Shown piece by piece: positions 13,832 through 64,000 of a DNA stretch of 64,000 nucleotides. The position numbers and the translations under genes were made by a program. Source of the DNA: Candidatus Omnitrophota bacterium. GTDB lineage: Bacteria > Omnitrophota > Gorgyraeia > Gygaellales > Profunditerraquicolaceae. Within the stretch, counting starts at the first letter, position 1, and each line of letters begins with the position of its first letter. The notes beneath the pieces were generated by a model. That model was not told the DNA's origin. It was given only the letters and a program-made list of their open reading frames with translations, and did no database searches. The DNA is taken from the NCBI GenBank assembly GCA_003598025.1, contig QZKH01000003.1, positions 375,221 through 439,220 on the forward strand, given 5' to 3'.

Positions 13832-13834
13832 CTC

Positions 13835-14404: not shown

Positions 14405-14407
14405 ATT

Positions 14408-15436: not shown

Positions 15437-15478
15437 AGTTATTATTATATCAAAAAAATAAATATTAAATATTAAATT

Positions 15479-16363: not shown

Positions 16364-16931
16364 TTCTTAACCTTATCTCCGTAGTTAATGTTACCTGTGG
16401 ATTGATATTACCTATTGCATTTTCTCTTACTGTTACCGTCACCGTCAATTTATTATTAATAAGCTCTGTAATATCAAAGGGCGGAACCATAATATTATCA
16501 AATTCCCAGCTCTTAACGCTCAACCCATCGATCTGGCGCCTTGTCAATGTATTATTGATAGGATTGTAAATATACTCTATAAACTCACTGCTCCATAAGA
16601 GGTTCGAACCGTCATGCCCGATACATTGCTTAAATTTTATATGCCCGTTCGTAGGCAGGTTATTAATGATCTGATAACTGCTGGTTTGCCGGACATCTTT
16701 TACAATCCAGCCCATAATGTTGCGCGCATTTTGCTCAACAGAAAGCTTAGCTATATTAACCCGGTCTGATAGATGCACGGCATTAAGCACGAAAATGAGC
16801 ATACCTGCGATTACAATGAATATCGCGCTTGTTATTAAAACCTCAATTAAAGTAAAGGCTTTAATTTTACCTGGGTATACGGGTAACAATTTCAATATTT
16901 CTCTGCCTCTGCCTTTCAGTCCAGCTGACAT
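16356..16931 (-). CDS. Minor pilin, prepilin-type N-terminal domain, non-canonical leader
   Basis: KAFTLIEVLITSAIFIV has the class III signal helix with E at +5 but Ala at -1. It overlaps the neighbouring pilin gene by 65 nt, so the true start is uncertain. Confidence 0.45.
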   Translation of the reverse strand: MSAGLKGRGREILKLLPVYPGKIKAFTLIEVLITSAIFIVIAGMLIFVLNAVHLSDRVNIAKLSVEQNARNIMGWIVKDVRQTSSYQIINNLPTNGHIKFKQCIGHDGSNLLWSSEFIEYIYNPINNTLTRRQIDGLSVKSWEFDNIMVPPFDITELINNKLTVTVTVRENAIGNINPQVTLTTEIRLRNG

Positions 16932-17244
16932 TAACTCTTATTTGAGCTATCTTTGAGCCTATGCTTCTGTTTATTGTAACAGCCTCATCTTGCAAATTTG
17001 TTAAAGAAGGCGGCACATATGTAGCGATATTATTATAGGCCAGGGATTTCATCTGCTCTAAGACCATCTGGGCATCATTAGTGGCGGTGATTAAATTGGC
17101 ATTTGATTCGTTAAGTAATATACAAACAACGTAAGAATACAATAACCCCGAGATAACGATAACCAGTATGACTATAGTTGTCATCAGCTCAAGAAGTGTA
17201 AATCCCTTGCCTTTCTTAAAACAGCTTTTAGCTAACTTAGGCAT
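16867..17244 (-). CDS. Minor pilin (prepilin-type cleavage/methylation domain)
   Basis: KGKGFTLLELMTTIVILVIV is a canonical G/FTLxE prepilin motif. Confidence 0.6.
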   Translation of the reverse strand: MPKLAKSCFKKGKGFTLLELMTTIVILVIVISGLLYSYVVCILLNESNANLITATNDAQMVLEQMKSLAYNNIATYVPPSLTNLQDEAVTINRSIGSKIAQIRVNVSWTERQRQRNIEIVTRIPR

Positions 17245-47715: not shown

Positions 47716-49845
47716 TTAGAATGGCCGCTCCGAATAATCAACCTCACCCTCCTTGCGGATGCGTATGCCGTCCCATCGACGCGATGCGCCACACCGCCCT
47801 CTATTGATAACGGTATATTGACGCAAGATCTCTCGGCCAAACATGATCTTGCTAAGCGGACGGTATTCGCTCTCAAGGCACCAGTCCCGGTAAGCCACAT
47901 ACAGGGCGTCATAGCTTACGTCTGCCTGAGCATCCAAAATGCACTGCTCCTCAACGAAAATAATGACGTTATTGTTCTCCTTGCGATAGGCGTCCTTCAC
48001 GGTCTGCATCGATGCGCTCTCCTCGAAATACCCGCGTTTTCGTAAACGCGTAAGGCCGTTAAGAGACCACAAGAAAATACCGTCCAATTCACTGGCCACG
48101 ATCTTGTGCTTTAACTTGGGATCACGTTCCTCTATGGAAAACTGCCGGTTAAAAGGAAGAATCAAAAGACGCCGGTAATACCCTTCGGTCTTATCCCCCA
48201 CGCGCGGCATGTTATTAGTTGAGAAAAGAAGCTTGCAGTAAGGTTTGAACTGAAACGGCTGGCCGTATTTTTCGTCAGCGGAGATCGTATCGCCGGTCAC
48301 GATCGCCTTGAACATGTTGTCATAGACATTTGTCTTGGCATTGGTTTCAAGGCTGATATTGACCAGTTTGTCCCGAAGCCGGGCGATGTAATGGGAATCG
48401 TTAAACTTCTCAAGCGGAATGGATGAGCAATTATCCTTGCCGATAAGCTCCTCGAGTACATACAAAACAACGCTCTTGCCGTTGGCCCCCTCGCCAAACA
48501 AAAAGAGCGCCTTTTCATAATCATTGTCTCGGGTGAGGCAATAGCCGAAATACTCCTGCAAAAGCATAATCCGGGCCGCGTCGCTTTCGAATATCTGATC
48601 AAGACTCTTCTGCCACAACAAACACTCGGCGTTCTCGCGATATGTCACATTAAGCTGGTTGATGGAATAGACGTCCGCCGAATGCGGCAAGAGCTTCATC
48701 TTGTCGATGTCATAAAGCCCGTTTTTGACATTAAAGAGCGTGATGCCATTAATGATGTCCGGCTTGATGAAAGTCTCGGTCTTAAGAGCAACCAGAACAT
48801 TGCGAAGCTTGCTCGCCGAAAACCCGGCCCCGCACGCATCCTTGATCCACTTCTGAACCTCCTCGATAAAGAGCGGCCGGTAACATCCGCCTTTATATTC
48901 GTAATAGGTGTCAGCGAAGTTGATTAGCCGATGATGTTTGAGGATTTCGTCAGCGACCTCATTGGCATTAACCTTTCTGGCTATCAGCAGGCTTGGTCGC
49001 GATGGCGTATAAACCTCACGACAATCATTCACCGCCTTTTCGATAACCGACTGACCATAAGTCCGGCCATCTCCGAAATGCTTTTCATCCCACTTGGGCC
49101 GCATAAGGCCGGACTGCCGGAATAACGCATCCATCTGCCCGGAGTCTTTGCCTGTCCAAAACGCCAGCTTATTGCAGAGTGCCAGATCCGCTTCACTTTG
49201 AGAGGGATAATCATTCTGCCATTGGCCGGAATAAAGCCGCTGAAATCTCTCCGCGTCTTTGCTCTTGGCGATTAAGGAAAGGATCTCGTTCGCGGGAGCT
49301 TTATCTACAAACCGACCGAATATGTCTTTAAGCGCATCGGTACATTCTTTCAGTTCAGCCGGATAGTTTTCAAGGCGGTTGCCGGTAACGGTAAAGAATC
49401 GGCCCTTTGTATAAATCTCCAAGCCGATCTTTGAAATCTTGCAGGCCCGGGCAATCTTGCCCTTACAAAGAATATGAATACCGGTGCCGCTTGGCGAATA
49501 CTCGGAATAGGAATTTAGCGCCTTGAGAATCTCAACCGCATAAGGCACGATGGCTCCATCTTTGACGCAATGATCGATATCCACGCCCACATATGGTGGC
49601 TGGAATACAAAGCCTACTCCCGCATACCCGCGCTGAAGCGCAAGATCGCTTGCGGTCGTATAATCCGTCCATGTGCTTGGATCGTTTGTTTTGGCAGGAC
49701 GTCCGCTCAGGACGTTCATCGGGACCTTGTCGGTGCGGTCTTTATTGCGCCTAAGCTCGTACCCAACCCAACAAGACAATTTGAGCAGTTCCTGAGGAAT
49801 AACCTCTTCCATCGTTCTCTTCTCTTTTCTTCTCTCGTCTTCCAT
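47716..49845 (-). CDS. Primase-helicase with an N-terminal prim-pol/bifunctional primase domain and a C-terminal P4-family/D5-like SF3 helicase
   Basis: The N-terminus YAGVGFVF..DIDH..SPSGTGIHIL is a primase-polymerase fold. The C-terminal Walker A GEGANGKS places it in the P4 alpha/D5 family. 709 aa. Confidence 0.8.
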   Translation of the reverse strand: MEDERRKEKRTMEEVIPQELLKLSCWVGYELRRNKDRTDKVPMNVLSGRPAKTNDPSTWTDYTTASDLALQRGYAGVGFVFQPPYVGVDIDHCVKDGAIVPYAVEILKALNSYSEYSPSGTGIHILCKGKIARACKISKIGLEIYTKGRFFTVTGNRLENYPAELKECTDALKDIFGRFVDKAPANEILSLIAKSKDAERFQRLYSGQWQNDYPSQSEADLALCNKLAFWTGKDSGQMDALFRQSGLMRPKWDEKHFGDGRTYGQSVIEKAVNDCREVYTPSRPSLLIARKVNANEVADEILKHHRLINFADTYYEYKGGCYRPLFIEEVQKWIKDACGAGFSASKLRNVLVALKTETFIKPDIINGITLFNVKNGLYDIDKMKLLPHSADVYSINQLNVTYRENAECLLWQKSLDQIFESDAARIMLLQEYFGYCLTRDNDYEKALFLFGEGANGKSVVLYVLEELIGKDNCSSIPLEKFNDSHYIARLRDKLVNISLETNAKTNVYDNMFKAIVTGDTISADEKYGQPFQFKPYCKLLFSTNNMPRVGDKTEGYYRRLLILPFNRQFSIEERDPKLKHKIVASELDGIFLWSLNGLTRLRKRGYFEESASMQTVKDAYRKENNNVIIFVEEQCILDAQADVSYDALYVAYRDWCLESEYRPLSKIMFGREILRQYTVINRGRCGASRRWDGIRIRKEGEVDYSERPF

Positions 49846-50456: not shown

Positions 50457-50611
50457 TTTTCCCGCACAGGCGAAACAGTGATCAGCTGTCCCGTAAGTCT
50501 ATTTTAATTTTATAACAGCGCGAATCTTTCTCAAGGGGGTCGTTACTACAAAATAGCAATAATTAGAAGAGGGCCTTTTTGCTAAAAAAGGCTTTTGGAA
50601 GGAGTAATTCT

Positions 50612-51037
50612 TTATATTGACTTAATCCACTCTTTGATTTTTACTTCTATCTGATCTCTGACCTCTTTTGTTTTCTTCAGCTTCTCTTCCGGCGATCCAG
50701 TAAAAGCGGATGGGTCCGGGAATCCCCAGTGAAGTTTTTGCGCAATGCCCGGGAATATCGGGCACCTCTCCGATTGCGATTCATCGCAGACGGTAACCAC
50801 ATAATTGTAGAGTTTGCCTTGCTTATAAAAATCAAACACACTCTTGGTTTTATTCTGCGAAATATCGATCCCGGCGTCTTTCATCGCCTCGACTACAACG
50901 GGATTGAGCTTGCCCGGCTCAAGGCCTGCGCTCTCCACCTCAAAACGATCGCCTGCATATTTCTTCAAGAATGCCTCTGCCATCTGCGAGCGCGCAGAGT
51001 TGTGAATACATACAAACAAAACCTTTTTCTTATCCAT
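50612..51037 (-). CDS. arsC: Arsenate reductase, LMW-PTPase family (thioredoxin-coupled)
   Basis: P-loop CIHNSARS (CX5R) and downstream Cys residues. 141 aa. Confidence 0.8.
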
Positions 51038-52130
51038 GGCTACCGCCCGATAATTTAAACCAATTTTGGGTTCTCAAACAAACCTTAACCAGCATCAGCA
51101 TCACCGGCACTTCGATAAGGACTCCTACAACCGTTGCCAGTGACGCTCCGGATGAAAGTCCGAAAAGAATTGTCGAAGTGGCGATAGCCACCTCAAAGTG
51201 ATTGCTCGCCCCTACCAACGCCGACGGTGCCGCATCCCGATACGACAGCTTCAACCATTTTGCCAAAGCATATGTTATGGCGAAAATAAGGCAGGTTTGA
51301 ATGAAAAGCGGTATCGCTATAAGAAAAATTATTTGCGGCTGGTTAATGATCAACTCCCCCTTAAAAGAAAACAACAAAACCAGCGTCAATAGCAATGCGC
51401 ATATCGAAACCGGCGTCAGATAATGCAGGAATTTCTCCTCAAACCACTTGAATCCTTTCTTGGCGATCAGCAATTTTCTTGAGTAATAGCCCAGGAGTAG
51501 CGGTAACCCGACATAGATCACCACTGACAATACGATTGTCTGCCACGGAATAGGCATTTTATTCACACCCAAGAGCCATCCACCAAGCGGCGCATACAGA
51601 AACAGCATTGTGAGGGAATTGATAGCTACCATAACAAGCGTGTGGCCGTCGTTTCCTCTAGCCAAATGCCCCCAGATCAGAACCATGGCCGTGCATGGCG
51701 CTATGCCTAACAAAATGCATCCTGCGATATACGACCGAAACAATTCGACCTGCGCCCCGCCTTTAACAATCTCCATCCCCGGAAGCCACCCTTTAAACAA
51801 TACCCCAAGGAAAAGCCATGCGATCGCAAGCATCGTAAACGGTTTTATGCACCAGTTCACAACTAAAGTCAGAATAACCGGCTTAGGCGCCTTTCCTGCT
51901 TTAATGACCTCCGCAAAATCAATCTTGACCATGATCGGGTACATCATGAAGAATAGGCAGATTGCGATAGGAATAGACACTTGATAAATCGAGATCTGAT
52001 CCAACGCCACCGCCACCTGCGGAAACAACTTGCCCAAAGCGATCCCAATTCCGATACAAAGCACTACCCATCCAGTGAGATACTTCTCGAAAAAGCTTAA
52101 TTTTCGTTCCTCATGAATAACGTGTTCCAT
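51030..52130 (-). CDS. acr3: Arsenite efflux transporter ACR3
   Basis: ACR3/ArsB-type membrane protein. Ten predicted TM helices. 366 aa. Confidence 0.8.
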
Positions 52131-52139
52131 CCGCCCTCC

Positions 52140-52826
52140 TTAAAATAACCGCAGGATATAAATTCCTGTGTAATAAAGACCGACAAGAATAAAAATCACC
52201 CCGGTAATTCTACGGGTAAAAAATTCCAGCTTCGTGATCTTATTAAACCAATGGCTCATTGAAGTCACGCCCAATGCGATAGCGACAGCGAACACCAGCA
52301 CCGGAAGTCCTGTCCCTATCCCATAAATAAACGGCAATAGCGTCCCTGCTTTGCTATTAAGCGCTAATGGTATCAAACTGCCGAAGAATAACGCCGCTGA
52401 AACCGGACAAAACGCTAAAGCGAATATCAATCCCAAAAGAAAAGCGCCGGGAGCTCCGGACTCAACAAGTTTATTGTGATGTTTTTGAGACAATGCCACA
52501 CCGGGCAATTTTATCGTGATCACTTCAAGTAAAAATAATCCGGTGATTATCAAGAGAGGCCCTAAGGCCTTGACCATGTATTTCTGCAAAAACTGCGCCA
52601 CCTGCGGAACACTTAAAAGCGAACTGATAATGATCCAGCCAAGCACTGCATACGCCGCCATCCTGCCGAGCGTATAAGCCAGTCCTGAAATGAATACCAT
52701 AACCGGATGCGCAATTTTCTTCGAGAGAAAAGACACCGCCGCGATGTTTGTCGCCAAGGGACAAGGACTGATTGACGTTAATATCCCCAGCCACAGCGCA
52801 GACCCCAAAGCGATCAATAGCTCCAT
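52140..52826 (-). CDS. ccdA: CcdA/DsbD-family thiol-disulfide electron transporter
   Basis: Six TM helices with conserved Cys in TM1 (ISPCP) and TM4 (AFCP). Confidence 0.65.
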   Translation of the reverse strand: MELLIALGSALWLGILTSISPCPLATNIAAVSFLSKKIAHPVMVFISGLAYTLGRMAAYAVLGWIIISSLLSVPQVAQFLQKYMVKALGPLLIITGLFLLEVITIKLPGVALSQKHHNKLVESGAPGAFLLGLIFALAFCPVSAALFFGSLIPLALNSKAGTLLPFIYGIGTGLPVLVFAVAIALGVTSMSHWFNKITKLEFFTRRITGVIFILVGLYYTGIYILRLF

Positions 52827-53245
52827 TATTGCGCGTCCTTCATAAATGCGTTTACCTCACCAGTCACGTAATCCATAAACTTTTGCTTATTGCGGGCAAG
52901 CTCCCAAATCTTGTCGAGATTTTTTGACTTTACTTCCTTGCCGTCCTTGACCAGAGAAAGAATGAGCGTTTTCGTATACAGCTTATAGTCATTTACGAAA
53001 TGTTCGTTGCCCTTCTCCTCGACATTAACCGCCTTAAACTCAAGCCCGCCGGAAGCAAGGGCATCCTTAAAGTTTGCATCAATCGCTTCTCTTGAGTATT
53101 TCTCCATTGCGGTGCATGTAGGACACCGAAACGATCCATGAAAATAATACGCTATGACTTTCGCCTGCGGGCTTGATTGCGCTAAAGCGAAAGACCCGGC
53201 ACTAAGTGCCGCAACAACCGCAAGAACCTGAATTATTCTTTTCAC
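52826..53245 (-). CDS. Exported thioredoxin-like protein (CPTC). The start is re-set to GTG at 53245 behind an AGGAGG SD. The ORF-track start is 53278.
   Basis: After re-setting the start the signal peptide is MKRIIQVLAVVAALSAGSFALAQ. CPTC redox motif. Confidence 0.45.
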   Translation of the reverse strand: MKRIIQVLAVVAALSAGSFALAQSSPQAKVIAYYFHGSFRCPTCTAMEKYSREAIDANFKDALASGGLEFKAVNVEEKGNEHFVNDYKLYTKTLILSLVKDGKEVKSKNLDKIWELARNKQKFMDYVTGEVNAFMKDAQ

Positions 53246-53483
53246 ATCCGCCTCCTGAAAGGATTGTTTTGATCTCATTCTTACTTAAGACTTTCCCGGA
53301 TGAAACCACCTTGCCGTCAATGGCCAGCCCGGGCGTCATCATGACACCGTATTCGGTGATCTTGTCGATATCCGTCACCTTACCGATCTCAGCTTGAATA
53401 TTTAATTCTTTCACAGCCGCCTCAGCATTCGCCGTAAGCTGTTTGCATTTAGGACAACCGACACCTAATATCTCAATTTTCAT
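53202..53483 (-). CDS. Small thioredoxin-fold 'redox-active disulfide protein 2'-like protein with a Cys-rich C-terminal tail (start trimmed to MKIEILG)
   Basis: MKIEILGVGCPKCKQL matches the Thioredoxin_3/TIGR00412 style. The C-terminus is GGGCEKNNSGSCGCCGT. Confidence 0.55.
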   Translation of the reverse strand: MKIEILGVGCPKCKQLTANAEAAVKELNIQAEIGKVTDIDKITEYGVMMTPGLAIDGKVVSSGKVLSKNEIKTILSGGGCEKNNSGSCGCCGT

Positions 53484-53496
53484 TTTAAGCCTCCAA

Positions 53497-54279
53497 TTAT
53501 TTTTTAACTGCCGCAACCTTTACGCTAGCTATTGCATCTTGGGCGGCATCAAGATTATCAAACATAGCGTCTACTGGATAACTTGACTCGCTTATAACCT
53601 TGACGTCCTTAAATCCCGCTTGTTTAATAAAACCCAGATATTCCTCTTTTTTAATGGCTCCGGCAAGGCATCCCACATACGCCTCAACAGAATCTTTGAT
53701 TTTTTTCGGCAGATCTTTCGCCAATACCAAGTCCGAAACCATCAGCCTACCGCCTGTTCTTAAAACCCTATAAGCCTCCTTGAAAACCGCTTCTTTATCA
53801 GGCGAAAGGTTAATGACACAGTTTGAAATAATAACGTCAATGGAATTGTCCTCAACGGGTAATTTCTCAATCTCACCTAAACGAAATTCAATATTGGAAT
53901 ACTTACCCTTCTTAGCATTCTCATTCGCTTTAGAGACCATCTCGGGTGTCATATCAACGCCAATAACCCTGCCGGTCTTGCCAACTCGTTGTGCTGATAA
54001 GAAAGCGTCGAATCCCGCACCGCTCCCCAGATCAAGCACCACATCCCCTTCTTTTAACGAGGCCAGAGCAACTGGATTCCCACACCCAAAGCCTAAATTC
54101 GCCCCTTCGGGTACAGCGTTCATTTCAGATTCGCTATAGCCTACCTTTTTGCTGATGTCTTCCGCCTGTGTTACGCCGCCACAGCATGAACTTGATGAAC
54201 AGCATGATTTTTTCTGCGACAACGCTTTTGTATAGCCTTCTCTGACAATCTTTTTAATTTTATCCGCTTCGTTTCTCAT
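53497..54279 (-). CDS. arsM: Arsenite S-adenosylmethionine methyltransferase
   Basis: Class I SAM methyltransferase fold (VLDLGSGAG) with Cys clusters CCSSSSCC and GCGNP typical of ArsM. Confidence 0.8.
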   Translation of the reverse strand: MRNEADKIKKIVREGYTKALSQKKSCCSSSSCCGGVTQAEDISKKVGYSESEMNAVPEGANLGFGCGNPVALASLKEGDVVLDLGSGAGFDAFLSAQRVGKTGRVIGVDMTPEMVSKANENAKKGKYSNIEFRLGEIEKLPVEDNSIDVIISNCVINLSPDKEAVFKEAYRVLRTGGRLMVSDLVLAKDLPKKIKDSVEAYVGCLAGAIKKEEYLGFIKQAGFKDVKVISESSYPVDAMFDNLDAAQDAIASVKVAAVKK

Positions 54280-54280
54280 T

Positions 54281-54445
54281 TTATATCCCTTCCCTCCTCA
54301 TTTTCGAGGCGTTCTCTTTATCAACTTGCTTCTTGATCACTTCTTTGACAAAATCCAAGGCGCCATCTTTATCCCTGTCGATTACGATTCGCTCAACTCT
54401 AAGCAAATCATCCTCAGTAAGATTGATGGTCTTTTTAATTATCAT
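54281..54445 (-). CDS. Candidate small ORF (54 aa). Its start overlaps the arsP stop (ATGA) and it ends 1 nt before the arsM ATG.
   Basis: MIIKKTINLTEDDLLRVERIVIDRDKDGALDFVKEVIKKQVDKENASKMRREGI is charged and helical. It is below the ORF-track length cutoff. Confidence 0.3.
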   Translation of the reverse strand: MIIKKTINLTEDDLLRVERIVIDRDKDGALDFVKEVIKKQVDKENASKMRREGI

Positions 54446-55647
54446 TTAACCACCGCTCCAAAAATCATACCACTGATAGTTGCCATGACCACAACTAAAG
54501 CCACATACACTGCTGTTTTTTTGGTTCCCATGATGCTCCGAAGCACAAGCATGCTCGGCAAGCTCAAAGCAGGCCCGGCCAAGAGAAGCGCCAAAGCAGG
54601 CCCTTTACCCATTCCTGAGTTCATCAATCCCTGTAATATAGGCACTTCTGTAAGCGTGGCGAAATACATAAATGCCGCCACAATTGATGAGAAGAAATTC
54701 GCCCATAACGAATTGCCGCCAACAAGCATGGTCACATATCGTGAAGGGATAACTCCCTCATGTCCTACCCTACCAAGCAGAAAACCTGAAACTAAAACTC
54801 CTCCTAAAAGAAGCGGCAATATCTGAAGCGCAAAACCCCATGTCGCTCCAGTCCATTCTCTTAACTCATCCCTTTTGAACCACTTGAAGAGCATAATCGC
54901 TAAGCTCATAAAAGATAATCCAGCGATCCACCATTTATACTGATAAATTATTGACCAAATACCATGATCACCCTCAAGCGGCTTCCCCCAGTTAGCAAAC
55001 ACCAAAAAAGCTACCATTGAGGCGAAATATAAAACGGTTTTACCTAAGGAGCGGGTTTCTTTTAACTCTCCAACATTGAAGTCCCCATTGGCGTGACGAG
55101 CCCTTTCTTCTTTTAAAAAGATGAGATGCATTAATAGTCCGATGACAACACTAAATACCACCGCTCCAATAGCTCGTGCCAACCCTAGCTCCCACCCAAG
55201 GATACGTGCGGTTAGAATGATTGCTAAAACATTTATGGCAGGCCCGGAATATAGAAAAGCGATCGCGGGTCCAAGCCCTGCCCCTCTTTTGTATATGCCT
55301 GAAAATAGCGGTAAAACCGTACAAGAACAAACAGCGAGAATTGTTCCCGACACAGAAGCGACACTATAAGAAAGGAATTTATTCGCCTTAGCCCCGAAAT
55401 ACTTCATCACGGACGCTTGGCTGACAAAAACAGATATCGCTCCGGCTATAAAGAACGCCGGAACAAGACACAAAAGCACGTGCTCCCGGGCGTACCATTT
55501 AACAAGAGCCAGAGCCTCAAAGACAGCATTGGTAAAACGAAGATTTTCTACCGGCAGGTAAAAACAGCCTAAGAATATGGCGGCAATATAAAGAAACTTC
55601 TTCCACTCTTTCATTTCTTGACCGTCCTCCCTCCAATAGTACAGCAA
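54442..55647 (-). CDS. arsP: Permease of the DUF318/YraQ type, ArsP-like organoarsenical efflux permease
   Basis: Multi-TM protein with a conserved CSC in a TM helix (ILAVCSCTVLP, like the TPFcSCS motif). It sits in an ars operon next to arsM. Confidence 0.55.
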   Translation of the reverse strand: MLYYWREDGQEMKEWKKFLYIAAIFLGCFYLPVENLRFTNAVFEALALVKWYAREHVLLCLVPAFFIAGAISVFVSQASVMKYFGAKANKFLSYSVASVSGTILAVCSCTVLPLFSGIYKRGAGLGPAIAFLYSGPAINVLAIILTARILGWELGLARAIGAVVFSVVIGLLMHLIFLKEERARHANGDFNVGELKETRSLGKTVLYFASMVAFLVFANWGKPLEGDHGIWSIIYQYKWWIAGLSFMSLAIMLFKWFKRDELREWTGATWGFALQILPLLLGGVLVSGFLLGRVGHEGVIPSRYVTMLVGGNSLWANFFSSIVAAFMYFATLTEVPILQGLMNSGMGKGPALALLLAGPALSLPSMLVLRSIMGTKKTAVYVALVVVMATISGMIFGAVVK

Positions 55648-55919
55648 CCGCCTTCAATACGGATCGCCTTAACATTCACCAGCGCGTCTGTGACTTTTTT
55701 GCAGGCTGATGCAACAATCCGCGAAAATGTCGGCCGGGATATCTTCATAAGTTTTGCCGCATCCCTCTGCTTCATCGCTTCCAAGCAGGCCAGCCGCATC
55801 GCCTCAAATTCATCGATGCTTAAAACAACACCTTCGAGTTTATTCAAAGGCTTGCATTTTGGCCGGAAACATCTCTCCCCCGGCAAACATTTAACCCATC
55901 TTGTTTTCTTTGGACGCAT
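55611..55919 (-). CDS. DUF134 (UPF0251) predicted DNA-binding protein, Cys-rich
   Basis: MRPKKTRWV..P....FKP......LEGVVLSIDEFEAMRL..LE...Q.DAA..M.ISRPTFSRI is the DUF134 signature. It ends with a vicinal Cys pair (EGGCCTIGG). Confidence 0.6.
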   Translation of the reverse strand: MRPKKTRWVKCLPGERCFRPKCKPLNKLEGVVLSIDEFEAMRLACLEAMKQRDAAKLMKISRPTFSRIVASACKKVTDALVNVKAIRIEGGCCTIGGRTVKK

Positions 55920-55933
55920 AAATAGACCTTTCG

Positions 55934-55953
55934 GTTATGAACATTGGTTCATA
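55934..55953. promoter_or_regulatory. Perfect 8-4-8 palindrome TTATGAAC-attg-GTTCATAA, 15 nt upstream of the DUF134 start
   Basis: Seen in the sequence. It is a candidate operator of the ars operon. Confidence 0.35.
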
Positions 55954-56021
55954 ACAATTTTAACACAAAGCGGATCAATGTCAATGACAAAACATTCATG
56001 CGGCTACAAAATTGGTAATAA

Positions 56022-58505
56022 TTATTTGGAGGGTTTTGAAGCTGAGGAATTATTGGTATTGGATTTTTGTCTTCTTGACAATCGCTTCTGTCTTGTCTGT
56101 TCATACCATGTCCAATATGATTCAATACCCAGATGCATCTGTTGCGTCGCATCACACAAATTCTGAATTCCATCACGAATATGCCAATTATTGGCAAATG
56201 CTTCGTATGGCGTCCCCTTATCTTTCCAGCAAGAAGGTGGCTCAAAGTCATCAAATAGCTCAATGCCGGTTAGAATTAAAACGGGATTTACCCACTGCTC
56301 GGCTTTTAGATGTTTTCTGCCTCGCCTTGCCAAACTTGCAATCAACTTCTTTTCACGATCTTTTAAAGTCTTACGTAAAGTACAGAACGCAATAATAGCA
56401 CCCGGGAATTTATCCGCTATCACCCTCATGCGGCCCACATCTGCTTGAGTAAACTCATTGAAAGATTTACATTCTCCGAAAATAATTAACGGAGTCTTGA
56501 TTTCATCCATGCGGCCTTCCGATAAAAACATTCCAAAATCAGCTTCAAGCGGTTTCTCTTCTTTGGCTTTAAGAATAAATGACGGGATCCAAGTCATTTC
56601 GTTTGATAATCCATGGCCGCCAAAGAACTCTAAGCTAAGAGCGACACAATATCCGCCTTGTGCATAATTTTCGACTGAGAAAGGCCCGATTGTCCTCAAA
56701 TGCCAATTGTTCTCGGATATTGGTCTAACAATAGGAAAATCAAACTTCTCAAGGCATCTTTCGCAGACTACCATGTCAGATAAATCATCCAAGGAGTACC
56801 ATGTTCTCTGAGCACATTCAGGACACTGTAACGTTACTCCCCCTTTAAGAATTTTGTAGCCAAGCAAATTCTGAAGTCGTCTTTCAGCAATCTCGGGTGA
56901 ATTAGCTAGGCTGATTCTTTGCAATAAATCCTGCCATTTTTTCACTGGTACCGTCTTTGCGCGCACCTTCGATTTAATCTCTCCCTCGGCAGAACCTTCA
57001 ACTTCAGTTTCCACTGCGGCATGAGACATATCGTTTAGAAGCTTAACTATTTCTTCATCCTGAAATGCCCTTGCCCCATGTATGCCACCAACAGAGTCAA
57101 TGATCTTTAGCGAAATTCGCCCCGAACCAGAGAGCTCGATATCATAGCCTTGCTCCTTGAACCATGCCTCAAACACTTTCAGACTGCTGGGAATCTCAAA
57201 AAAATGGCTCCATTCATAATGTTCACAAGGAATATTAATGCCTTCATTAGATACCCAAGCCTTATGAAAGCTATGAGCTCCAAACAGATGGTATGCGTCT
57301 TTTAAATTCCTAGGGAGCACGGTCGGGCAATCATATCTTTTATAAAAATCTTTAAGCTTGAGAGTGTTCATCCAGCGAGGTTTTCCACCCCCACCGTAGC
57401 GGTCTACAAAACTTGGAGAAATATCTTTAAATCGCGCATAATCATCGTCCAAAGATATCTCTTCCGACTCTTCTTTCGCTACAATTGAGCAAAGCTCAAC
57501 ATGGTCTTTGTCTTTCGCCCATTCATCCCACATGCGCGGATACCAGTGCTGTAATGAATAAGCGTGATCTCCCGGGGAAGTTAATTTCTTGGAAAAAGCC
57601 TGCATCTCATCCATAGAGGATGATCGTGAGCAAATAAAAGTCGTATGGTGCATCATGTCCTTATTATGTCGGTAAGGCACATAATTATGCTTGATGATTC
57701 CATTGACCAAATCAATATAATGATCCGCATATTGTTTTGGAAGCGGCAACACATCCCTGCCCACTGCTCTTAAATTCCAATAGTCAACGATATCAAGCCA
57801 TGAGGTCGCGTCCATAAAGAATATCGACGCATCCGCCCTCCAGCCACGCGGAGACGCTTTAAGCTCGGCACGTGTTATCCTCATTGGAGAAACGCCTTCA
57901 TTTAAGAAGCATTCGAGAAAATTATTCGGCTTAATGAGCAAATCCTTGGCGTTAAAGCAATGACAATAATTTTTCTTAACATATGCCATTTCTTTCTTAT
58001 CAGGAAAATCGCCAAAACTACAGGCTGACAGCAAGGATATTTCCCTTGACGGCTTTGGACAAAATACTTTGATACGATGCCGCCGCTCAAACTTAAAATC
58101 CTTATCATACAAGTGCCAATATAAGTCGGTCACATCTACACCATACGATATTGGCTCTTCATCTTTACTATTCATAACGTCATCAAAGGACAGGAGTCGC
58201 TCTTTATCGAAAAGTGATCCGGCTATTTTCTGCTTATCTTTTACAACAAGATAATCCGGATCGAATGAATCCAAATACCCCTTAGTGATAGATGAGGCTG
58301 GAGGATGGCGGAATCGACGATCTTCCCAATTAGGTGGCGTTTTCTTGAAGTAAGGAATTATAGGATTATAAACCCCTCCCCACAGACAAGTATTAATCTT
58401 GAACACTTCTCGTAGGGTTCGGTTATCGTCCTTCTTAACCAAAAATGCAAGCCTGATCGGACGCAGTTTTTTATCAATCGTGATTTTCTTATCTTTTATC
58501 GCCAT
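56022..58505 (-). CDS. Uncharacterised 827-aa protein encoded directly downstream of hsdS. No family recognised.
   Basis: A 14-bp gap to hsdS on the same strand. Cys4 Zn ribbon CPEC-x16-CERC (aa 561-584). A PD-(D/E)xK-like D656...E678-C-K680 (ADFG...IIFGECK). Confidence 0.5.
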   Translation of the reverse strand: MAIKDKKITIDKKLRPIRLAFLVKKDDNRTLREVFKINTCLWGGVYNPIIPYFKKTPPNWEDRRFRHPPASSITKGYLDSFDPDYLVVKDKQKIAGSLFDKERLLSFDDVMNSKDEEPISYGVDVTDLYWHLYDKDFKFERRHRIKVFCPKPSREISLLSACSFGDFPDKKEMAYVKKNYCHCFNAKDLLIKPNNFLECFLNEGVSPMRITRAELKASPRGWRADASIFFMDATSWLDIVDYWNLRAVGRDVLPLPKQYADHYIDLVNGIIKHNYVPYRHNKDMMHHTTFICSRSSSMDEMQAFSKKLTSPGDHAYSLQHWYPRMWDEWAKDKDHVELCSIVAKEESEEISLDDDYARFKDISPSFVDRYGGGGKPRWMNTLKLKDFYKRYDCPTVLPRNLKDAYHLFGAHSFHKAWVSNEGINIPCEHYEWSHFFEIPSSLKVFEAWFKEQGYDIELSGSGRISLKIIDSVGGIHGARAFQDEEIVKLLNDMSHAAVETEVEGSAEGEIKSKVRAKTVPVKKWQDLLQRISLANSPEIAERRLQNLLGYKILKGGVTLQCPECAQRTWYSLDDLSDMVVCERCLEKFDFPIVRPISENNWHLRTIGPFSVENYAQGGYCVALSLEFFGGHGLSNEMTWIPSFILKAKEEKPLEADFGMFLSEGRMDEIKTPLIIFGECKSFNEFTQADVGRMRVIADKFPGAIIAFCTLRKTLKDREKKLIASLARRGRKHLKAEQWVNPVLILTGIELFDDFEPPSCWKDKGTPYEAFANNWHIRDGIQNLCDATQQMHLGIESYWTWYEQTRQKRLSRRQKSNTNNSSASKPSK

Positions 58506-58519
58506 ATTCTTTAAAAATC

Positions 58520-59719
58520 CTACCTTACCAACTCCCCGCGAAAGGCTTTAGCTAAAATGGACTGCTCCAGCTTGTCGGTATAACCCTTTGCCTTATTAAA
58601 CTCATTCTCATTCTTTTCAATAAAAGCAAAGGATGATTTGAGCCTCTTTACAATTTCTTCTTGTTCATCGATAGGCGGCAAAGATATCTGTAAGTTTTTA
58701 ACTTCTTCACTGTTAATGTTGTTTACGCCACTTGTTGAACGCGCCGGTAATTCAATCTGCAATCTCATCGCATACGACTGAAATTGATATTGTAAAAATT
58801 CCGGTAAAATCAGCTCTTTATTTACCCTAAGCCGGATCAAATAACCAGCATACGCCATGCTTTCTTCTTTATCGGTAACCAGTGCCGTTCGGCCAACAAG
58901 CGAAACGCTTCCGTTTGAGCGGATTAACAAGATATCACCAGGTTCAAGTTTTAGGCTTTCATACTCTTTCTTATCCAGATCGGCGTATTTCAAATCATCC
59001 AGGTCGATATACCCTTGCACAACGTTCGGAATTCTCAAGACCGGATGCTTCTTTTTCTCTTTGAAGCATTTTTTTGCTGTCCCATATTTCAGATCATTGA
59101 GCACTTCTCCAAGTCTAACTTCCCGCCATTCTTCTTCATCCTCCTTTTTCTTCCACGTCTTGGTCAGCTCGCCGGAGAAGGCCGCGGCAAGGACAGATTG
59201 ACGGAAACGATTCAAGATGACAGGAATTGTGTCGAGGCGGGATTGGGCGTCTTTGACTTTAGGCAACAGTGCCTTTAACTTAGACAAAATTTTCTCTCGT
59301 TCTATCGGAGTAGGTAATGGCATAACTAGCTTATTGATATCACCTACAGTTAGCATCGGTATAGCTCCACCCTTCGTAAGCTCTCTCCAATTAATTGTTT
59401 TGAGCCACAGGCAACAATAATCTGTGAGTGCTTCATCACGTAGCTTTAAAGCGATAGTTGTTTGTGTAGATGCAAAACGATCGTTCTTTGGAATTTTTGG
59501 AAAACCAATAGATCCTCGAGCCGAAACAACAATAGTCCCTTTAGCATGAATTTTCTTTGGTTTTTCCAAAAATCCCCAGGGAGTGTTATCCATGCCTGCA
59601 GAATATACGGGAATCCCGCTCCCGGTGAGGTCTTTTGCTAAAATAGTTTCTCCCATTCGAGCGTCAGCAACTTCACTTAATGGTAATTCGTCCCATCCGT
59701 CTGGTAAATTATTCTCCAT
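58520..59719 (-). CDS. hsdS: Type I restriction-modification specificity subunit
   Basis: Two target-recognition domains separated and flanked by conserved coiled-coil repeats. 399 aa. It overlaps hsdM by 11 nt. Confidence 0.8.
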   Translation of the reverse strand: MENNLPDGWDELPLSEVADARMGETILAKDLTGSGIPVYSAGMDNTPWGFLEKPKKIHAKGTIVVSARGSIGFPKIPKNDRFASTQTTIALKLRDEALTDYCCLWLKTINWRELTKGGAIPMLTVGDINKLVMPLPTPIEREKILSKLKALLPKVKDAQSRLDTIPVILNRFRQSVLAAAFSGELTKTWKKKEDEEEWREVRLGEVLNDLKYGTAKKCFKEKKKHPVLRIPNVVQGYIDLDDLKYADLDKKEYESLKLEPGDILLIRSNGSVSLVGRTALVTDKEESMAYAGYLIRLRVNKELILPEFLQYQFQSYAMRLQIELPARSTSGVNNINSEEVKNLQISLPPIDEQEEIVKRLKSSFAFIEKNENEFNKAKGYTDKLEQSILAKAFRGELVR

Positions 59720-61115
59720 TACTCTCCAGCTCCGCTACGATTTCTTTAAGGCTGTCAACAACCGTTTCCAGCTCTGTAATAGCTTCGGATGCCAAAACCT
59801 GCGGCTCCGGCAAGTCCTCCGGATTATCCAATGACTCATCCTTAAGCCATGTTACATCGAGCTTATAGCCGCGATCCTTGATCTCCTTAATGTTGAACCG
59901 ACGAAAACGTCCATCGACGCCAAGGTCTGTCCTCTTGCTCTGCCCATTAGGATCGGAGCCGTAACACTTCTCAAATTCTTTAAAGTGCTCCCCTGAAAGC
60001 GGCCGATCCTTTTTAGTTATTCCGGGCACGTTGGAGCGACCGTCGAATATCCAGACATTCTCCGTAGGCAATCCCTTCTGGAAGAAAATCACGTTCGCCT
60101 TCACTCCTTGGCTATAGGGCGTAAATGTCCCTCTGGGCAGGCGTAAGATCGTGTGCAGGTTGCAATCCTGTGTCAGAATCTCAATCACCTCTCCGGCCTT
60201 GTCTTCAAAAAGGCAGTTATCCGGTAAAACCATAGCCGCGCGGCCTCCGGGGCGTAGCACATTCACGACGTGCTGAATAAAGTTGAGCTGTTTATTGCTC
60301 GTTGAAATCGTAAAATCATCCCTCTCCGGAGCCTGATTCGCTCCCTTAGTACCGAACGGCGGATTCGTAAGAATACAATCGTATCGCGTACCTTTCATTG
60401 GCTCATAAATAGAATCACCAAGATAAATGTCCGCATGGATTCCGTGTAGGTATAGATTCATCAAAGCAAGTCGGCGCGGCCGGGCAACAAGCTCGGTGCC
60501 GGTGTAAACCTTATTTGCTATCCGTTTAGCATCATCACGCTCAAGACTGCCCTTGGTTTGCTCCATTAGCCACTCATAAGCACAGACCAAAAAGCCCCCA
60601 GTCCCAGCCGCAGGATCATGGATAATGAAGTCCTTTGACTTTCGCGGATCAGGCTTCATGCATTTGACGATTGACTGAATAAGAACACGCGGGGTGAAAT
60701 ATTGTCCGGCTCCCTTCTTGCCTTCCGAAGCAGATTTCTCAAGCAACCCTTCATAAGCGGCCGCTTTAACATCTACATTAAGACTTGTCCATTCGGTTTC
60801 ATCAATCAGGTTAATAAGCTTCTTAAGATTGACCGGATTGGCAAATTTTGAGATCGCTCCAGCATAGATATCCCCAAGCGTTCCTTTTTGTTTGCCAAGG
60901 CCGCGTAAAGCATCCACATAAAAATCAGTTAAATCTGTTCCTGACTTCTCACGCAGGACTGGCCATGAATATTCCTTGGGAATATCCGCACCCTTCTCCT
61001 CTGCCATTTTCAAGAACAGCAAATACGTCAACTGTTCAATATAATCACCGTAATCCACGCCGTCATGGCGTAGCGTGTGACAAAATCCCCATAATTTTCC
61101 GACTACATCGCTCAT
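59709..61115 (-). CDS. hsdM: Type I restriction-modification N6-adenine DNA methyltransferase subunit
   Basis: HsdM N-terminal domain. SAM motif I (HDPAAGTGGFL) and motif IV NPPFG. 468 aa. Confidence 0.9.
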   Translation of the reverse strand: MSDVVGKLWGFCHTLRHDGVDYGDYIEQLTYLLFLKMAEEKGADIPKEYSWPVLREKSGTDLTDFYVDALRGLGKQKGTLGDIYAGAISKFANPVNLKKLINLIDETEWTSLNVDVKAAAYEGLLEKSASEGKKGAGQYFTPRVLIQSIVKCMKPDPRKSKDFIIHDPAAGTGGFLVCAYEWLMEQTKGSLERDDAKRIANKVYTGTELVARPRRLALMNLYLHGIHADIYLGDSIYEPMKGTRYDCILTNPPFGTKGANQAPERDDFTISTSNKQLNFIQHVVNVLRPGGRAAMVLPDNCLFEDKAGEVIEILTQDCNLHTILRLPRGTFTPYSQGVKANVIFFQKGLPTENVWIFDGRSNVPGITKKDRPLSGEHFKEFEKCYGSDPNGQSKRTDLGVDGRFRRFNIKEIKDRGYKLDVTWLKDESLDNPEDLPEPQVLASEAITELETVVDSLKEIVAELESNGE

Positions 61116-63802
61116 GTAAGCACCGCCTCATTTATTTCTTTTAAGAGTTCATCCAATTTGCCGTCAAAAAGACGGTTGAGTTTTGAATAGCTCATCCCTT
61201 GCCTTGTAAAAATAGGCAAAGTATCGATATCATCCTTCTCGATGAGTAAGTTAGTCACTAAGTGATAGCGAATATGCTCAAGCCATGCGCTTTGCGCTTC
61301 TGAAAATTGATGCTTGGCCTTCACCTTCGTCAAGGCCCGATCAACGCGGCTCTCAACAGTCAGAAGCTCGTCATTTTTAGCCGCGTGCCTGATTATGGAA
61401 ACGATATCGGCGAGCTCCTTGTTATATGCCCGGCGAAGATTGCGCTCGTTAAACTTATCAACCAGATTATCCGGTCTGGTAGCCAGCTTCTCGCGTAACG
61501 CTTTAAGCTCATCTGTATCAAATTCTTTTGGCTTATTGAGCAGAATATCTATGGCGTCGATGTGTTCGGGATTCTTCCGGACAAACTCCTCAAACATCGC
61601 CAGATAATCGGCGGGCTTAAGTTCTTTACCGTCAGCCGCCCTGAATATGACCTCTGAAGTAACAAGATCCTCCGCGGTTTCCGCGATGACAAATTCTCGC
61701 TTGGGCCTCTGATAATTTTCGCAGATATGAAGAAACGCTTCGCCCTGAAGAATCTTGATCGTCCCTGCCCAATTCTTGGAGAGTTTATCCTCAAGTGTCA
61801 TGGCAAAATCAGCGATGTCTTCACCGAGGATATAGTTGAATTCGTTCCTGCTCTCTTGTGTAATATTCTTTGAAATACGCTGGAGCCGCTTGGATAAAAC
61901 TTTGATGTTATATGCCCGGCTTTGATTGTCAGCAATCGCTTGCACAATTTCTCGGATGGTTTTTGAGGGCTTAACCGGAGCTTCAGCAGTGATGCTGGTC
62001 GTTTTCTTAAAATACTCAAGTAACGTACCGCCGAAACAATCAAAAACAGTAAAATGAGTTTTATTGATCTCCGGACAAAGCCTTGTGCCGCGCCCCATCA
62101 TTTGCTCAAAGAGGATTCTTGATTTCACCGGACGCAGAAAAACGATATTCTCTATCTTCGGCACATCAACACCGGTCGAAAGCATATCAACGGTCACAAC
62201 AATGCCGGGATTCTGCCTATTTCTAAACTCTCTGATGCGCTGAAGCGGCCTGTCAACTGTTGGACTGCCGGTTATCTTCTGGACAAATGAATCTCCGCGG
62301 TTAAATTCATCCCGCAAAATCTCAATCAATTGATCGCAATGTGACGTGTGCGGTAAATCGTTATCCGCAAAAATTAATGTTTTGGGAAAATGCCCGATAG
62401 ATGCTTCTTGAGCCAGCAGGTATTTCTTGAGCTCCTGTACGATTTTTTTATTTCTGTCGGGTGCCGTCCACTCTGCCTCATTACTTTCAGGCGCAAGGAC
62501 ACGTTCATCCTCAAGCACATCAAAAACCATCTGGCCGGTTTTAGTGTCTTTTAACCCGACCTCTTCGCCTTCCTTTAAGAAGGCCCCGTTGAATGTAATA
62601 TCGGATTTGATCGCAACCGCATCATAATCAACCAAGAAGCCTTCCTTTACAGCACGTTCGTATTCGTAGCGAAACACAACTTCTTTGAAGAAAGCGGTCG
62701 TATGCGCCGCTGGCGTGGCAGTTAACCCAATCCTGATACCATCAAAATGCTTTAAAGCTTCGCGCCACTTGCTCTCCTCCTGAGCGGTATAACCACGATG
62801 GCATTCATCAGCTATAACCACATCAAAGGCATGAATCGGGATGTCCAACTTTTCATCCGCGTCAGATTCGTCATCCAGATCGCCGGTTGATTGCCCAAAC
62901 ATACCGTCTTTGCCGAAAAGATTGATGCCCATTCTCTGAATGGTGCAGACATAAACAAAACTATCGCGGCTTTTTGGATCGGTCAGATACTCGGTAGGCA
63001 AAACTTTTGGATCGTATTTGATATCCTCATCCAAATCCTCGCGTCTGAAACGTTGGCTGTAAACCTCGTAACACTTGTCAAACTTAAGTCCCGGCTCTGC
63101 CTCAAAACTCGCGAGCGCAGTAACTGCCTGTGCCGCCAGAGCGCGTCTATCCACAAGAAACAATATGCGCTTGGCCAGTTTTGACTTCATCAGCCGGTAT
63201 ATCAGATTAATAATTGTGAATGTCTTGCCTGTGCCGGTGGCCATGGCAACAAGCATGTTGCGCTTTCTGTCAGCGATAGCCTGTTCGATCGCTGAAATTG
63301 CTTCGATTTGATATGGCCGCAAAAATCGGTTGTCTATTGAGTTGCTCTTAAGCCACGCTTTTGCGGCATCTTCATCTCTTGAAAGTAATTCTTCTAAAGC
63401 ATTAGGCGTGTGAATCGCAGTAATCTCGCGAGAACGGTTCAACGGATGGCGCAGATCCTGAAACCAGATGATCTTGCCATTCGTGGAATAGATAAACGGG
63501 AGATGATACTCGCCAAATGTAAACGGGCTATTCTGGAATCCTCGGGCATATCGCTGTGCCTGTTGAAGCACGTTTTGAGGCCCGACTGAAATCTTTTTCC
63601 CTTCGACCGCCGCTAAAGAACGCTTGTCATGAAAAAGAGCATAGTCACAAGGACCTGTTTGCGTAGGATATTCTTCAACGGAACCATGCCCATAAGTCTT
63701 GCCTTCTTCAAAAGGAACGATCGGCCCCCACTTTGAATTAAGCAGGAGTTTGTCGATATATTGCTTTCTTGTCCTATGTTCGTTCCAATTTTGTTCAGGC
63801 AT
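61112..63802 (-). CDS. hsdR: Type I restriction enzyme R subunit (SF2 helicase with nuclease)
   Basis: Helicase motif I AMATGTGKT and motif II DECHRG. HsdR N- and C-terminal domains. ATGA overlap with hsdM. Confidence 0.85.
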   Translation of the reverse strand: MPEQNWNEHRTRKQYIDKLLLNSKWGPIVPFEEGKTYGHGSVEEYPTQTGPCDYALFHDKRSLAAVEGKKISVGPQNVLQQAQRYARGFQNSPFTFGEYHLPFIYSTNGKIIWFQDLRHPLNRSREITAIHTPNALEELLSRDEDAAKAWLKSNSIDNRFLRPYQIEAISAIEQAIADRKRNMLVAMATGTGKTFTIINLIYRLMKSKLAKRILFLVDRRALAAQAVTALASFEAEPGLKFDKCYEVYSQRFRREDLDEDIKYDPKVLPTEYLTDPKSRDSFVYVCTIQRMGINLFGKDGMFGQSTGDLDDESDADEKLDIPIHAFDVVIADECHRGYTAQEESKWREALKHFDGIRIGLTATPAAHTTAFFKEVVFRYEYERAVKEGFLVDYDAVAIKSDITFNGAFLKEGEEVGLKDTKTGQMVFDVLEDERVLAPESNEAEWTAPDRNKKIVQELKKYLLAQEASIGHFPKTLIFADNDLPHTSHCDQLIEILRDEFNRGDSFVQKITGSPTVDRPLQRIREFRNRQNPGIVVTVDMLSTGVDVPKIENIVFLRPVKSRILFEQMMGRGTRLCPEINKTHFTVFDCFGGTLLEYFKKTTSITAEAPVKPSKTIREIVQAIADNQSRAYNIKVLSKRLQRISKNITQESRNEFNYILGEDIADFAMTLEDKLSKNWAGTIKILQGEAFLHICENYQRPKREFVIAETAEDLVTSEVIFRAADGKELKPADYLAMFEEFVRKNPEHIDAIDILLNKPKEFDTDELKALREKLATRPDNLVDKFNERNLRRAYNKELADIVSIIRHAAKNDELLTVESRVDRALTKVKAKHQFSEAQSAWLEHIRYHLVTNLLIEKDDIDTLPIFTRQGMSYSKLNRLFDGKLDELLKEINEAVLT

Positions 63803-63810
63803 ACTTTTCC

Positions 63811-64000
63811 TTATTTGTAAGCGACCAGCTCGCCGCTATCAGCGAAGCTGTAATACTGGTTATCCCCTATAATTAAGTGATCGAGCACTTTGACCTGCAT
63901 CACATTGCCTGCCTGACAGAGCTCCCTTGTGAAATCCCTGTCCTCTTTGCTTGGTTTCGGATCCCCTGATGGATGATTGTGCAAACAGATGATCGATACC
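63811..64000 (-). CDS. RadC-like JAB/MPN domain protein (DUF2466), C-terminal part. The gene continues beyond the window.
   Basis: Reverse translation gives ...CLHNHPSGDPKPSKEDRDFTRELCQAGNVMQVKVLDHLIIGDNQYYSFADSGELVAYK*, which has the JAMM-like HNHPSG motif. Confidence 0.6.
   Translation of the reverse strand, partial: VSIICLHNHPSGDPKPSKEDRDFTRELCQAGNVMQVKVLDHLIIGDNQYYSFADSGELVAYK

Follow-up and report, generated by a model that had tools for sequence, protein, structure and literature searches.

A candidate auxiliary nuclease family with a member at the end of a type IB-like restriction-modification operon in an Omnitrophota genome

Nuclease effectors have been described inside several loci of restriction-modification (R-M) type. 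Examples are PrrC in EcoprrI (PMC3874165), the backup restriction endonuclease (REase) effectors of BREX and DUF499 systems (PMC12839542), and TgvAB, a GmrSD-like type IV system that lies inside the type I R-M operon of V. cholerae VPI-2 and is 17 times commoner alone than embedded (PMC11411939). Here we describe an 827-amino-acid protein, orf827, whose gene is the last of an hsdR-hsdM-hsdS-orf827 run in a 64,000-nucleotide stretch of a Candidatus Omnitrophota genome (GenBank assembly GCA_003598025.1, contig QZKH01000003.1, forward-strand positions 375,221 to 439,220; hereafter the window). Our analysis leans towards orf827 being an autonomous, single-polypeptide auxiliary nuclease, combining a predicted sensor, a zinc ribbon and a PD-(D/E)xK effector, that was incorporated last in a type IB-like hsdRMS operon on a mobile or variable island. 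Its family, with a predicted role in defence, is a promising candidate for a new nuclease that acts as an auxiliary against phages.

An earlier reading made from the letters alone (the sequence-only reading) could not assign orf827 to any family, and profile searches led to the same result. Nothing significant was obtained from Pfam, NCBIfam, PADLOC, PHROGs or PDB sequences, and zinc ribbons gave weak matches only; the sole PADLOC match, to PDC-M33C, was insignificant (E 0.013), and no housekeeping family was matched in the libraries searched. A Pfam scan of 51 aligned members of the family at E<=1 likewise gave weak zinc-ribbon matches only, in at least 12 of the 51. At least 391 full-length homologs of about 800 amino acids were found, all labelled 'hypothetical' and free of Pfam domains. 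Profile searching of 1.84 billion representative proteins recovered 4,612 clusters (50% identity) at E<=1e-3, nearly all about 800 amino acids long, of which 1,292 were at E<=1e-30; nearly all span the whole profile. Relatives occur in 185,579 species genomes (one genome per species) 231 times, in phyla that include Patescibacteria, Poribacteria, Planctomycetota, Acidobacteriota, Nitrospirota, Pseudomonadota, Bacteroidota, Bacillota and Chloroflexota, with one archaeal relative in a Methanosarcinales metagenome-assembled genome; metagenome contigs hold at least 484. The orf827 family is large, widespread and so far undescribed and unnamed, and its sparse, patchy distribution is as expected of a horizontally moving accessory gene.

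Two motifs proved invariant in an alignment of the 51 homologs, which reach down to 32% identity: CPEC...CERC at residues 561-584 (C561, C564, C581 and C584) and EADFG...GECK at residues 654-680 (E654, D656, E678 and K680). An AlphaFold2 model built on this alignment (predicted local distance difference test (pLDDT) 86.4; predicted template modelling score 0.83) places the cysteines in a Cys4 zinc ribbon of two beta-hairpins (553-590; strands 553-560, 567-571, 578-580 and 587-589), which follows helices 515-552 within the segment 515-592 (56730-56963, on the minus strand like every segment of orf827 below). The second motif, with the putative catalytic residues E654, D656, E678 and K680, falls in the next segment, residues 593-762 (56220-56729). 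Its core (about 600-760) is modelled as alpha-beta-beta-beta-alpha-beta, with D656 between the short strands 653-655 and 657-662, E678-x-K680 closing strand 673-680, and helices 615-629 and 687-699 flanking the catalytic strands. A disordered linker (497-514, pLDDT <50) precedes the ribbon segment, and residues 763-827 (56025-56219) form poorly conserved C-terminal helices (767-822) and a basic tail.

When the nuclease domain was compared with the PDB by Foldseek, Can2 was the top match (E 6e-4, probability 0.97), followed by MspJI, Avs3/4, NotI, SfsA and Mus81. Matches from two fold-search tools also included Can1, Card1, FokI, AspBHI, NucS, VRR-Nuc, HamA and many restriction endonucleases, with dozens of PD-(D/E)xK structures among them. 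Motifs and model together identify the C-terminal domain as a PD-(D/E)xK nuclease fold, showing the hallmarks of the superfamily, with an intact E-x-D...E-x-K site, and predicted to be active. Its modelled structure is closest to the Can2/Card1/Can1 type, as a domain-level match without residue alignment. Both the zinc ribbon and the nuclease core had been proposed in the sequence-only reading, the latter from its PD-(D/E)xK-like spacing, and both are borne out by the invariant residues, by the model and by the fold matches.

In the N-terminal module, residues 1-335 (57501-58505) are modelled as three tandem Rossmann/flavodoxin-like alpha/beta domains, a predicted sensor or regulatory module, and residues 336-496 (57018-57500) as a beta-rich domain (about 340-440) and, after it, a helical bundle (441-495). 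Invariance extends to about 20 positions of the N-terminal part, including R15, W42-G43-G44, D84, D238, W243-N244, R294, W326 and W329, and conservation stands at 0.57 in alpha/beta domain 1, 0.60 in domain 3 and 0.59 in the nuclease domain. Conservation this strong speaks for a specific role of the module, in binding or in catalysis. A GGGGKP stretch at about residues 372-377 is neither a Walker A motif nor conserved in the alignment consensus. Since a fold search returned no CARF, SAVED, TIR or P-loop protein among its top 60 matches, the module of about 500 residues is, as judged by sequence and model, new at the level of annotation; the module also gave no known modified-base reader fold and no annotated relative. 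Separate searches with the N-terminal and C-terminal modules recovered only fragments of the orf827 family, a negative that is limited by the word-indexed search used, and the architecture appears to be fixed, not modular.

The fold matches raise the question of whether orf827 is a modification-dependent, type IV-like endonuclease, in which the N-terminal module would read modified phage DNA and the C-terminal domain would cut it, so complementing a type I system that attacks unmodified DNA only. The modification-dependent enzymes MspJI and AspBHI, and FokI-type cleavage domains, are among the matches, and GmrSD-type type IV enzymes and many methyltransferases occur among the neighbours of the family. 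Mrr and McrBC adjoin EcoKI, complementing that type I system. There is also a precedent for a type IV system both inside and outside type I clusters (PMC11411939). However, no PADLOC mREase_IV model is matched, and three Rossmann-like domains are atypical of a DNA-reader architecture. We regard this explanation as unlikely, and we prefer an autonomous auxiliary nuclease.

The operon itself is well defined. On the minus strand, hsdR (61112-63802; 896 amino acids), hsdM (59709-61115; 468 amino acids), hsdS (58520-59719; 399 amino acids) and orf827 (56022-58505) follow one another, with a 4-nucleotide overlap (ATGA) between hsdR and hsdM, an 11-nucleotide overlap between hsdM and hsdS, and a 14-nucleotide gap before orf827; these coordinates agree with the four-gene layout read originally from the sequence. 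HsdR, a type I restriction subunit of the EcoAI/EcoEI kind, matches ResIII (6.5e-35), EcoEI_R_C (1.5e-33) and Helicase_C in Pfam, REase_I in PADLOC (1.2e-94), and PRK11448 (1e-179) and restrict_EcoAI (5e-82) in NCBIfam, the last two under their equivalog cut-offs. HsdM, the N6-adenine DNA methyltransferase subunit, matches N6_Mtase (1.9e-60) and HsdM_N in Pfam and MTase_I in PADLOC (2.2e-168). HsdS, the specificity subunit with two target-recognition domains, matches Methylase_S in Pfam (5.9e-32, in two stretches) and Specificity_I in PADLOC (2.9e-74). The three genes form a complete type I R-M system with all subunits encoded together, and we call it type IB-like because of the EcoEI_R_C and EcoAI-like matches of HsdR, EcoAI and EcoEI being classed as type IB enzymes in a published table (PMC3874165).

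That orf827 belongs to the same transcription unit, as the sequence-only reading had it, is plausible from the 14-nucleotide gap, which makes orf827 a putative co-transcript of hsdRMS. A promoter-like site on the minus strand (55957-55984), between the orf827 stop and a DUF134 gene, reads TTGACA-16-TAAAAT with an upstream TG and has 11 of 12 sigma-70 matches, as a consensus match alone; it suggests that orf827 may be the end of the R-M transcription unit. At the other end, directly upstream of hsdR, lies the 3' part of a radC-like gene (63811-63999, minus strand) with the JAMM motif HNHPSG, truncated at the window end. This is the RadC boundary that had been noticed before, and the RadC-hsdR junction recurs, with a Pfam RadC match, in loci L084 and L085.

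We analyzed the genomic neighbourhood of the orf827 family in 80 loci from genomes and 80 from metagenomes; grouped at 90% identity, these amount to 150 distinct lineages. In the genome set, nine HsdS-like genes lie within +-10 kb of a homolog and six of these nine are found exactly at position -1 (P ~6e-6 for one given position); the metagenome set adds three loci with hsdS at -1 (L088, L111 and L123), and tblastn located part of an hsdS gene where the L005 contig ends. An hsdS gene is directly upstream in 10 of the 150 lineages, a lower bound, as many contigs are short. The hsdS-linked lineages are spread over five or more clades, which are just 25-37% identical to one another, and they show the gene orders R-M-S-T, R-S-T-M, S-T-M, R-S-T and M-S-T, where T is the orf827 homolog. 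The position following hsdS is thus taken far more frequently than by chance, and the link is recurrent and specific. Yet it is facultative, because relatives 74-89% identical to orf827 sit in other contexts, adjoining UDG, a Schlafen-like gene or an SNF2 helicase; the gene adjoins no hsdS in about 93% of the distinct lineages. Since most members are without an R-M neighbour, the gene is probably autonomous.

One locus preserves a trace of such a change. In L004, the last 19 codons of hsdS (2398-2454) remain just upstream of an intact orf827 homolog (89% identity), with 79% identity to the window HsdS (tblastn, E 1.4e-4). The hsdS gene itself is lost, and the upstream gene now encodes a DUF4062/HATPase_c_4/Fic_C (Schlafen-like) protein. 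This remnant is the footprint of an excision from an hsd operon.

These observations bear on whether orf827 is a dedicated, PrrC-like partner or guard of the type I complex, held latent on HsdS or M2S1 and freed when R-M is disabled by a phage factor against restriction, be it an Stp-like peptide or a DNA mimic of the Ocr or ArdA kind, or else using M2S1 as a targeting module. PrrC offers a model: its gene lies within a type I operon, whose enzyme sequesters the protein (PMC3874165). The place straight after hsdS is specific whatever the order of hsdR and hsdM, and in L022, L081, L111 and L123 the homolog even stands between hsdS and hsdM with junctions of 0-4 nucleotides; the other recurrent partners, DUF1156/DUF499 and BrxH/DrmD-type helicases, are also methyltransferase-based. 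Against this, the great majority of lineages lack an adjacent hsdS, close relatives live in contexts without R-M, and the L004 gene has stayed intact after losing its hsdS. Moreover, unrelated defence genes are known to use hsd loci as insertion hotspots, as TgvAB illustrates (PMC11411939). A dedicated partnership therefore seems distinctly unlikely to us. The suggestion in the sequence-only reading that orf827 is a new R-M partner or effector holds insofar as co-localisation with R-M and other defence genes is recurrent, with a predicted role in defence, but the protein is not an obligate type I partner, and an autonomous nuclease that has repeatedly entered hsd operons fits better.

Over the neighbourhood as a whole, R-M and other defence genes make up most of the neighbours. 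At position -1 we counted Methylase_S in 6 of 78, GmrSD_N in 3, Schlafen/AlbA in 2 and HNH in 2; at +1, N6_Mtase in 3 of 76, integrase in 2 and AbiEi in 2, with single Type ISP, Tsp45I and C5 methylase genes. Positions -2/-3 gave ResIII (8 of 140), N6_Mtase (6), HSDR_N (5), EcoEI_R_C (4), N6_N4_Mtase (3) and EcoRI_methylase (2), and by PADLOC MTase_I (6), REase_I (4), mREase_IV (4), BrxH (3), DrmD (3) and DrmA (3); at +2/+3, DNA methylases, AbiEii, HNH and UvrD were seen. R-M, BREX/DISARM-like, GmrSD, abortive infection (Abi) and Schlafen families are the commonest neighbours at the scanned positions. By the logic of guilt by association, the family co-localises non-randomly with defence genes across distant genomes, judging by these counts and by the positional P value for hsdS. 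The repeated proximity to hsdS, R-M and other defence genes that the sequence-only reading had asked about was therefore found. Beyond the type I subunits, no neighbour family is common to more than five loci. DUF1156/DUF499 pairs occur in three, where these systems adjoin the homologs (L003, L017 and L032), and individual neighbours include GmrSD in L045 and TPR-GreAB-C-PIN in L041. No cas or cyclase family appeared among the 25 families listed per neighbour set for positions -3 to +3, rarer families not being displayed.

In L003/L009 (54-9975), a homolog of 43% identity lies 25 nucleotides downstream of genes for an SNF2-NOV_C helicase, a DUF1156 methyltransferase, a 192-amino-acid protein and a DUF499 ATPase, a four-gene cluster similar to the 'Type-2 BREX-related' systems (PMC12839542). 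Beside it lies a Mu-like prophage with Mor, terminase and amidase genes.

The surroundings of the window operon are variable. A sister locus, L084, encodes a protein 96% identical to orf827 in the same RadC-hsdRMS block, with 92.9% DNA identity over 7.9 kb. Homology between the two ends about 43 nucleotides before the orf827 stop and resumes near window position 50564 (~50564-50063). In the slot between (50564-56065), the window carries a 5.5-kb arsenic-resistance cassette comprising a DUF134 regulator, an ArsP permease, an ArsM-like methyltransferase, a thioredoxin, a DsbD-like protein, ACR3 and ArsC, and L084 carries, 3' of the break (12441-17169), a gene for an unknown protein of 359 amino acids, a caspase (Peptidase_C14)-DEAD helicase gene and a gene of 127 amino acids. 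Upstream of RadC in L084 (1777-4695) are an unknown gene of 178 amino acids and the type IV toxin-antitoxin/Abi pair formed by DUF6088 and AbiEii; the presence of this pair places the L084 block in a multi-system defence island.

Further along the window, a D5/NrS-1-type primase-helicase gene (47716-49845, minus strand; 709 amino acids; NrS-1 polymerase HBD, DUF5906, D5_N and Pox_D5) was identified. Such primase-helicases are typical of integrated mobile elements or satellites, and this one suggests that the whole R-M and arsenic region lies on an integrative element. No tRNA was found within the 64-kb window. Given the cassette swap and the primase-helicase, the region is a variable, mobile-element-like island, in line with the earlier view that it was acquired. 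The accompanying claim that it is GC-richer holds only weakly: hsdR and hsdM (GC content 0.46-0.47) and the 44-56 kb region (0.42-0.49, mostly ~0.45) are somewhat higher, but orf827 itself, at 0.42, is like most of the window.

An island of this kind, with its primase-helicase and swappable cassettes, would also be a natural home for a gene that has nothing to do with defence, such as a nuclease for repair or recombination, or a gene serving the maintenance of, or addiction to, a mobile element, whose adjacency to R-M would then reflect shared variable islands and insertion hotspots. Many repair enzymes have PD-(D/E)xK domains, and NucS, Mus81, SfsA and VRR-Nuc are among our fold matches; some homologs adjoin UDG, DNA pol III alpha or housekeeping genes. 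We nevertheless consider this explanation very improbable. Repair genes are not distributed so sparsely and patchily across phyla, R-M and defence families top every scanned neighbour position, and an hsdS-to-T order with overlapping junctions is hard to explain by island residence alone. An addiction role fits poorly with the near absence of the gene from plasmids and phages, both of which often carry addiction modules.

Several observations nonetheless weigh against an autonomous defence nuclease and temper our preference for it. The match to Can2 is one of whole domains, which leaves the equivalence of the catalytic residues putative. The N-terminal module is without recognisable ligand-binding or sensor homology, which makes 'sensor' an argument from architecture alone. 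The neighbour census relied on a crude ORF (open reading frame) caller and counts per gene, not per locus, and housekeeping genes adjoin some homologs (two Sulfuricurvum loci with DNA pol III alpha; a histidine kinase). Finally, the family occurs in only one of 72,556 plasmid records and in none of the phage records, settings in which many defence genes are common, although the taxonomic bias of the databases may explain both counts.

The sole plasmid homolog (8974-11382 in L086; 29% identity) is carried by the Photobacterium damselae plasmid pWMD-P3-2, where it adjoins a DUF4238 gene, with a PAAR-domain gene and a gene for an H-NS-like regulator nearby. Among 2.9 million viral contigs of IMG/VR, five relatives were found (L167-L171), one at 31% identity and four at 22-26%; they may be true phage genes or host DNA included in prophage predictions. 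Many fragments of the family, 200-600 amino acids long (P0244, P0265, P0278, P0280, P0315 and others), were observed on ENA contigs of 0.4-5.9 Mb, and these could be frameshifted pseudogenes, long-read assembly errors or real split genes.

If orf827 is an autonomous auxiliary nuclease, the following mechanism can be proposed. The N-terminal module would sense an infection cue, perhaps a phage protein, a small ligand or some feature of nucleic acids, and the sensed signal would license the nuclease, which probably works in dimeric form like Can2 and Card1. Holding the nucleic acid may fall to the zinc ribbon and its flanking helices, and metal-dependent cutting of phage and/or host DNA would halt the infection. 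Co-transcribed with hsdRMS, the protein could back up type I restriction as a second line of defence when phages get past it. A bolder version, which we think improbable, is that the family represents a new guard for methylation-based immunity. Its N-terminal module would dock on HsdS/M2S1 or on DUF499/BREX-related methyltransferase complexes, sense their inhibition by anti-restriction proteins or the presence of unmethylated or stalled complexes, and unleash the Can2-like nuclease as abortive infection. Such a guard would be a DNA-cutting counterpart of PrrC made of entirely different parts.

Should the predicted role in defence be true, a widespread single-gene nuclease system would be added to the catalogue of prokaryotic immunity. 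A new mechanism of trigger sensing may be found in the N-terminal module of about 500 residues, which has no annotated relative, and the fact that the gene has repeatedly been inserted right behind hsdS provides a concrete and testable example of second-line effectors being layered onto R-M. The family is missed entirely by Pfam, NCBIfam, PADLOC and PHROGs, and a profile from the present alignment would improve the annotation of many genomes.

Compared with described systems, orf827 shares its predicted nuclease fold with Can2, Card1 and Can1, but it alone adds a zinc ribbon and about 500 extra residues. Those nucleases are associated in genomes with type III CRISPR-Cas or other cyclic-nucleotide synthases, whereas the neighbours of orf827 are R-M genes instead. 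We rejected its identity as a CARF nuclease, because no CARF protein, whose domain binds cyclic oligoadenylate in those nucleases, was among the top 60 fold matches of the N-terminal module and no sequence-profile match of DUF1887 type was obtained. Shedu and the backup REase effectors of BREX and DUF499 likewise pair a PD-(D/E)xK effector with a presumed N-terminal sensor in or beside methylation-based loci (PMC12839542). The resemblance to Shedu (SduA) drawn in the sequence-only reading was not sustained: no PADLOC Shedu model was matched, DUF4263 was not among the top fold matches, and the N-terminal module appears fixed in the orf827 family, in contrast to the variable N-terminal domains of Shedu. 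Unlike type IIS enzymes with FokI-type domains, or R.BspD6I, orf827 has neither a recognisable FokI-like recognition domain nor a dedicated cognate methyltransferase, and its N-terminus is unrelated.

PrrC and RloC, the other comparison made at the outset, were rejected as identities on the lack of ABC-ATPase, anticodon-nuclease or PrrC matches in Pfam, NCBIfam and PADLOC. As an accessory effector in an hsd operon, PrrC still shows that a latent second-line nuclease can be linked to R-M (PMC3874165), and embedding in a type I operon, a PrrC-like trait, is seen in the window locus and in at least 10 lineages. PrrC is an anticodon nuclease, whereas the effector of orf827 is modelled as a PD-(D/E)xK fold, so DNA is its likely substrate. 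The R-M linkage of the orf827 family is facultative (hsdS adjoins about 7% of lineages), whereas prrC is always R-M-linked according to PMC3458546. In its distribution, the family is more reminiscent of TgvAB, also a nuclease system found both inside and mostly outside type I clusters, with about 93% of orf827 lineages outside. TgvAB is a two-gene GmrSD system (ParB/HNH-type), whereas orf827 is a single protein that joins a predicted PD-(D/E)xK nuclease to an unrelated N-terminal module.

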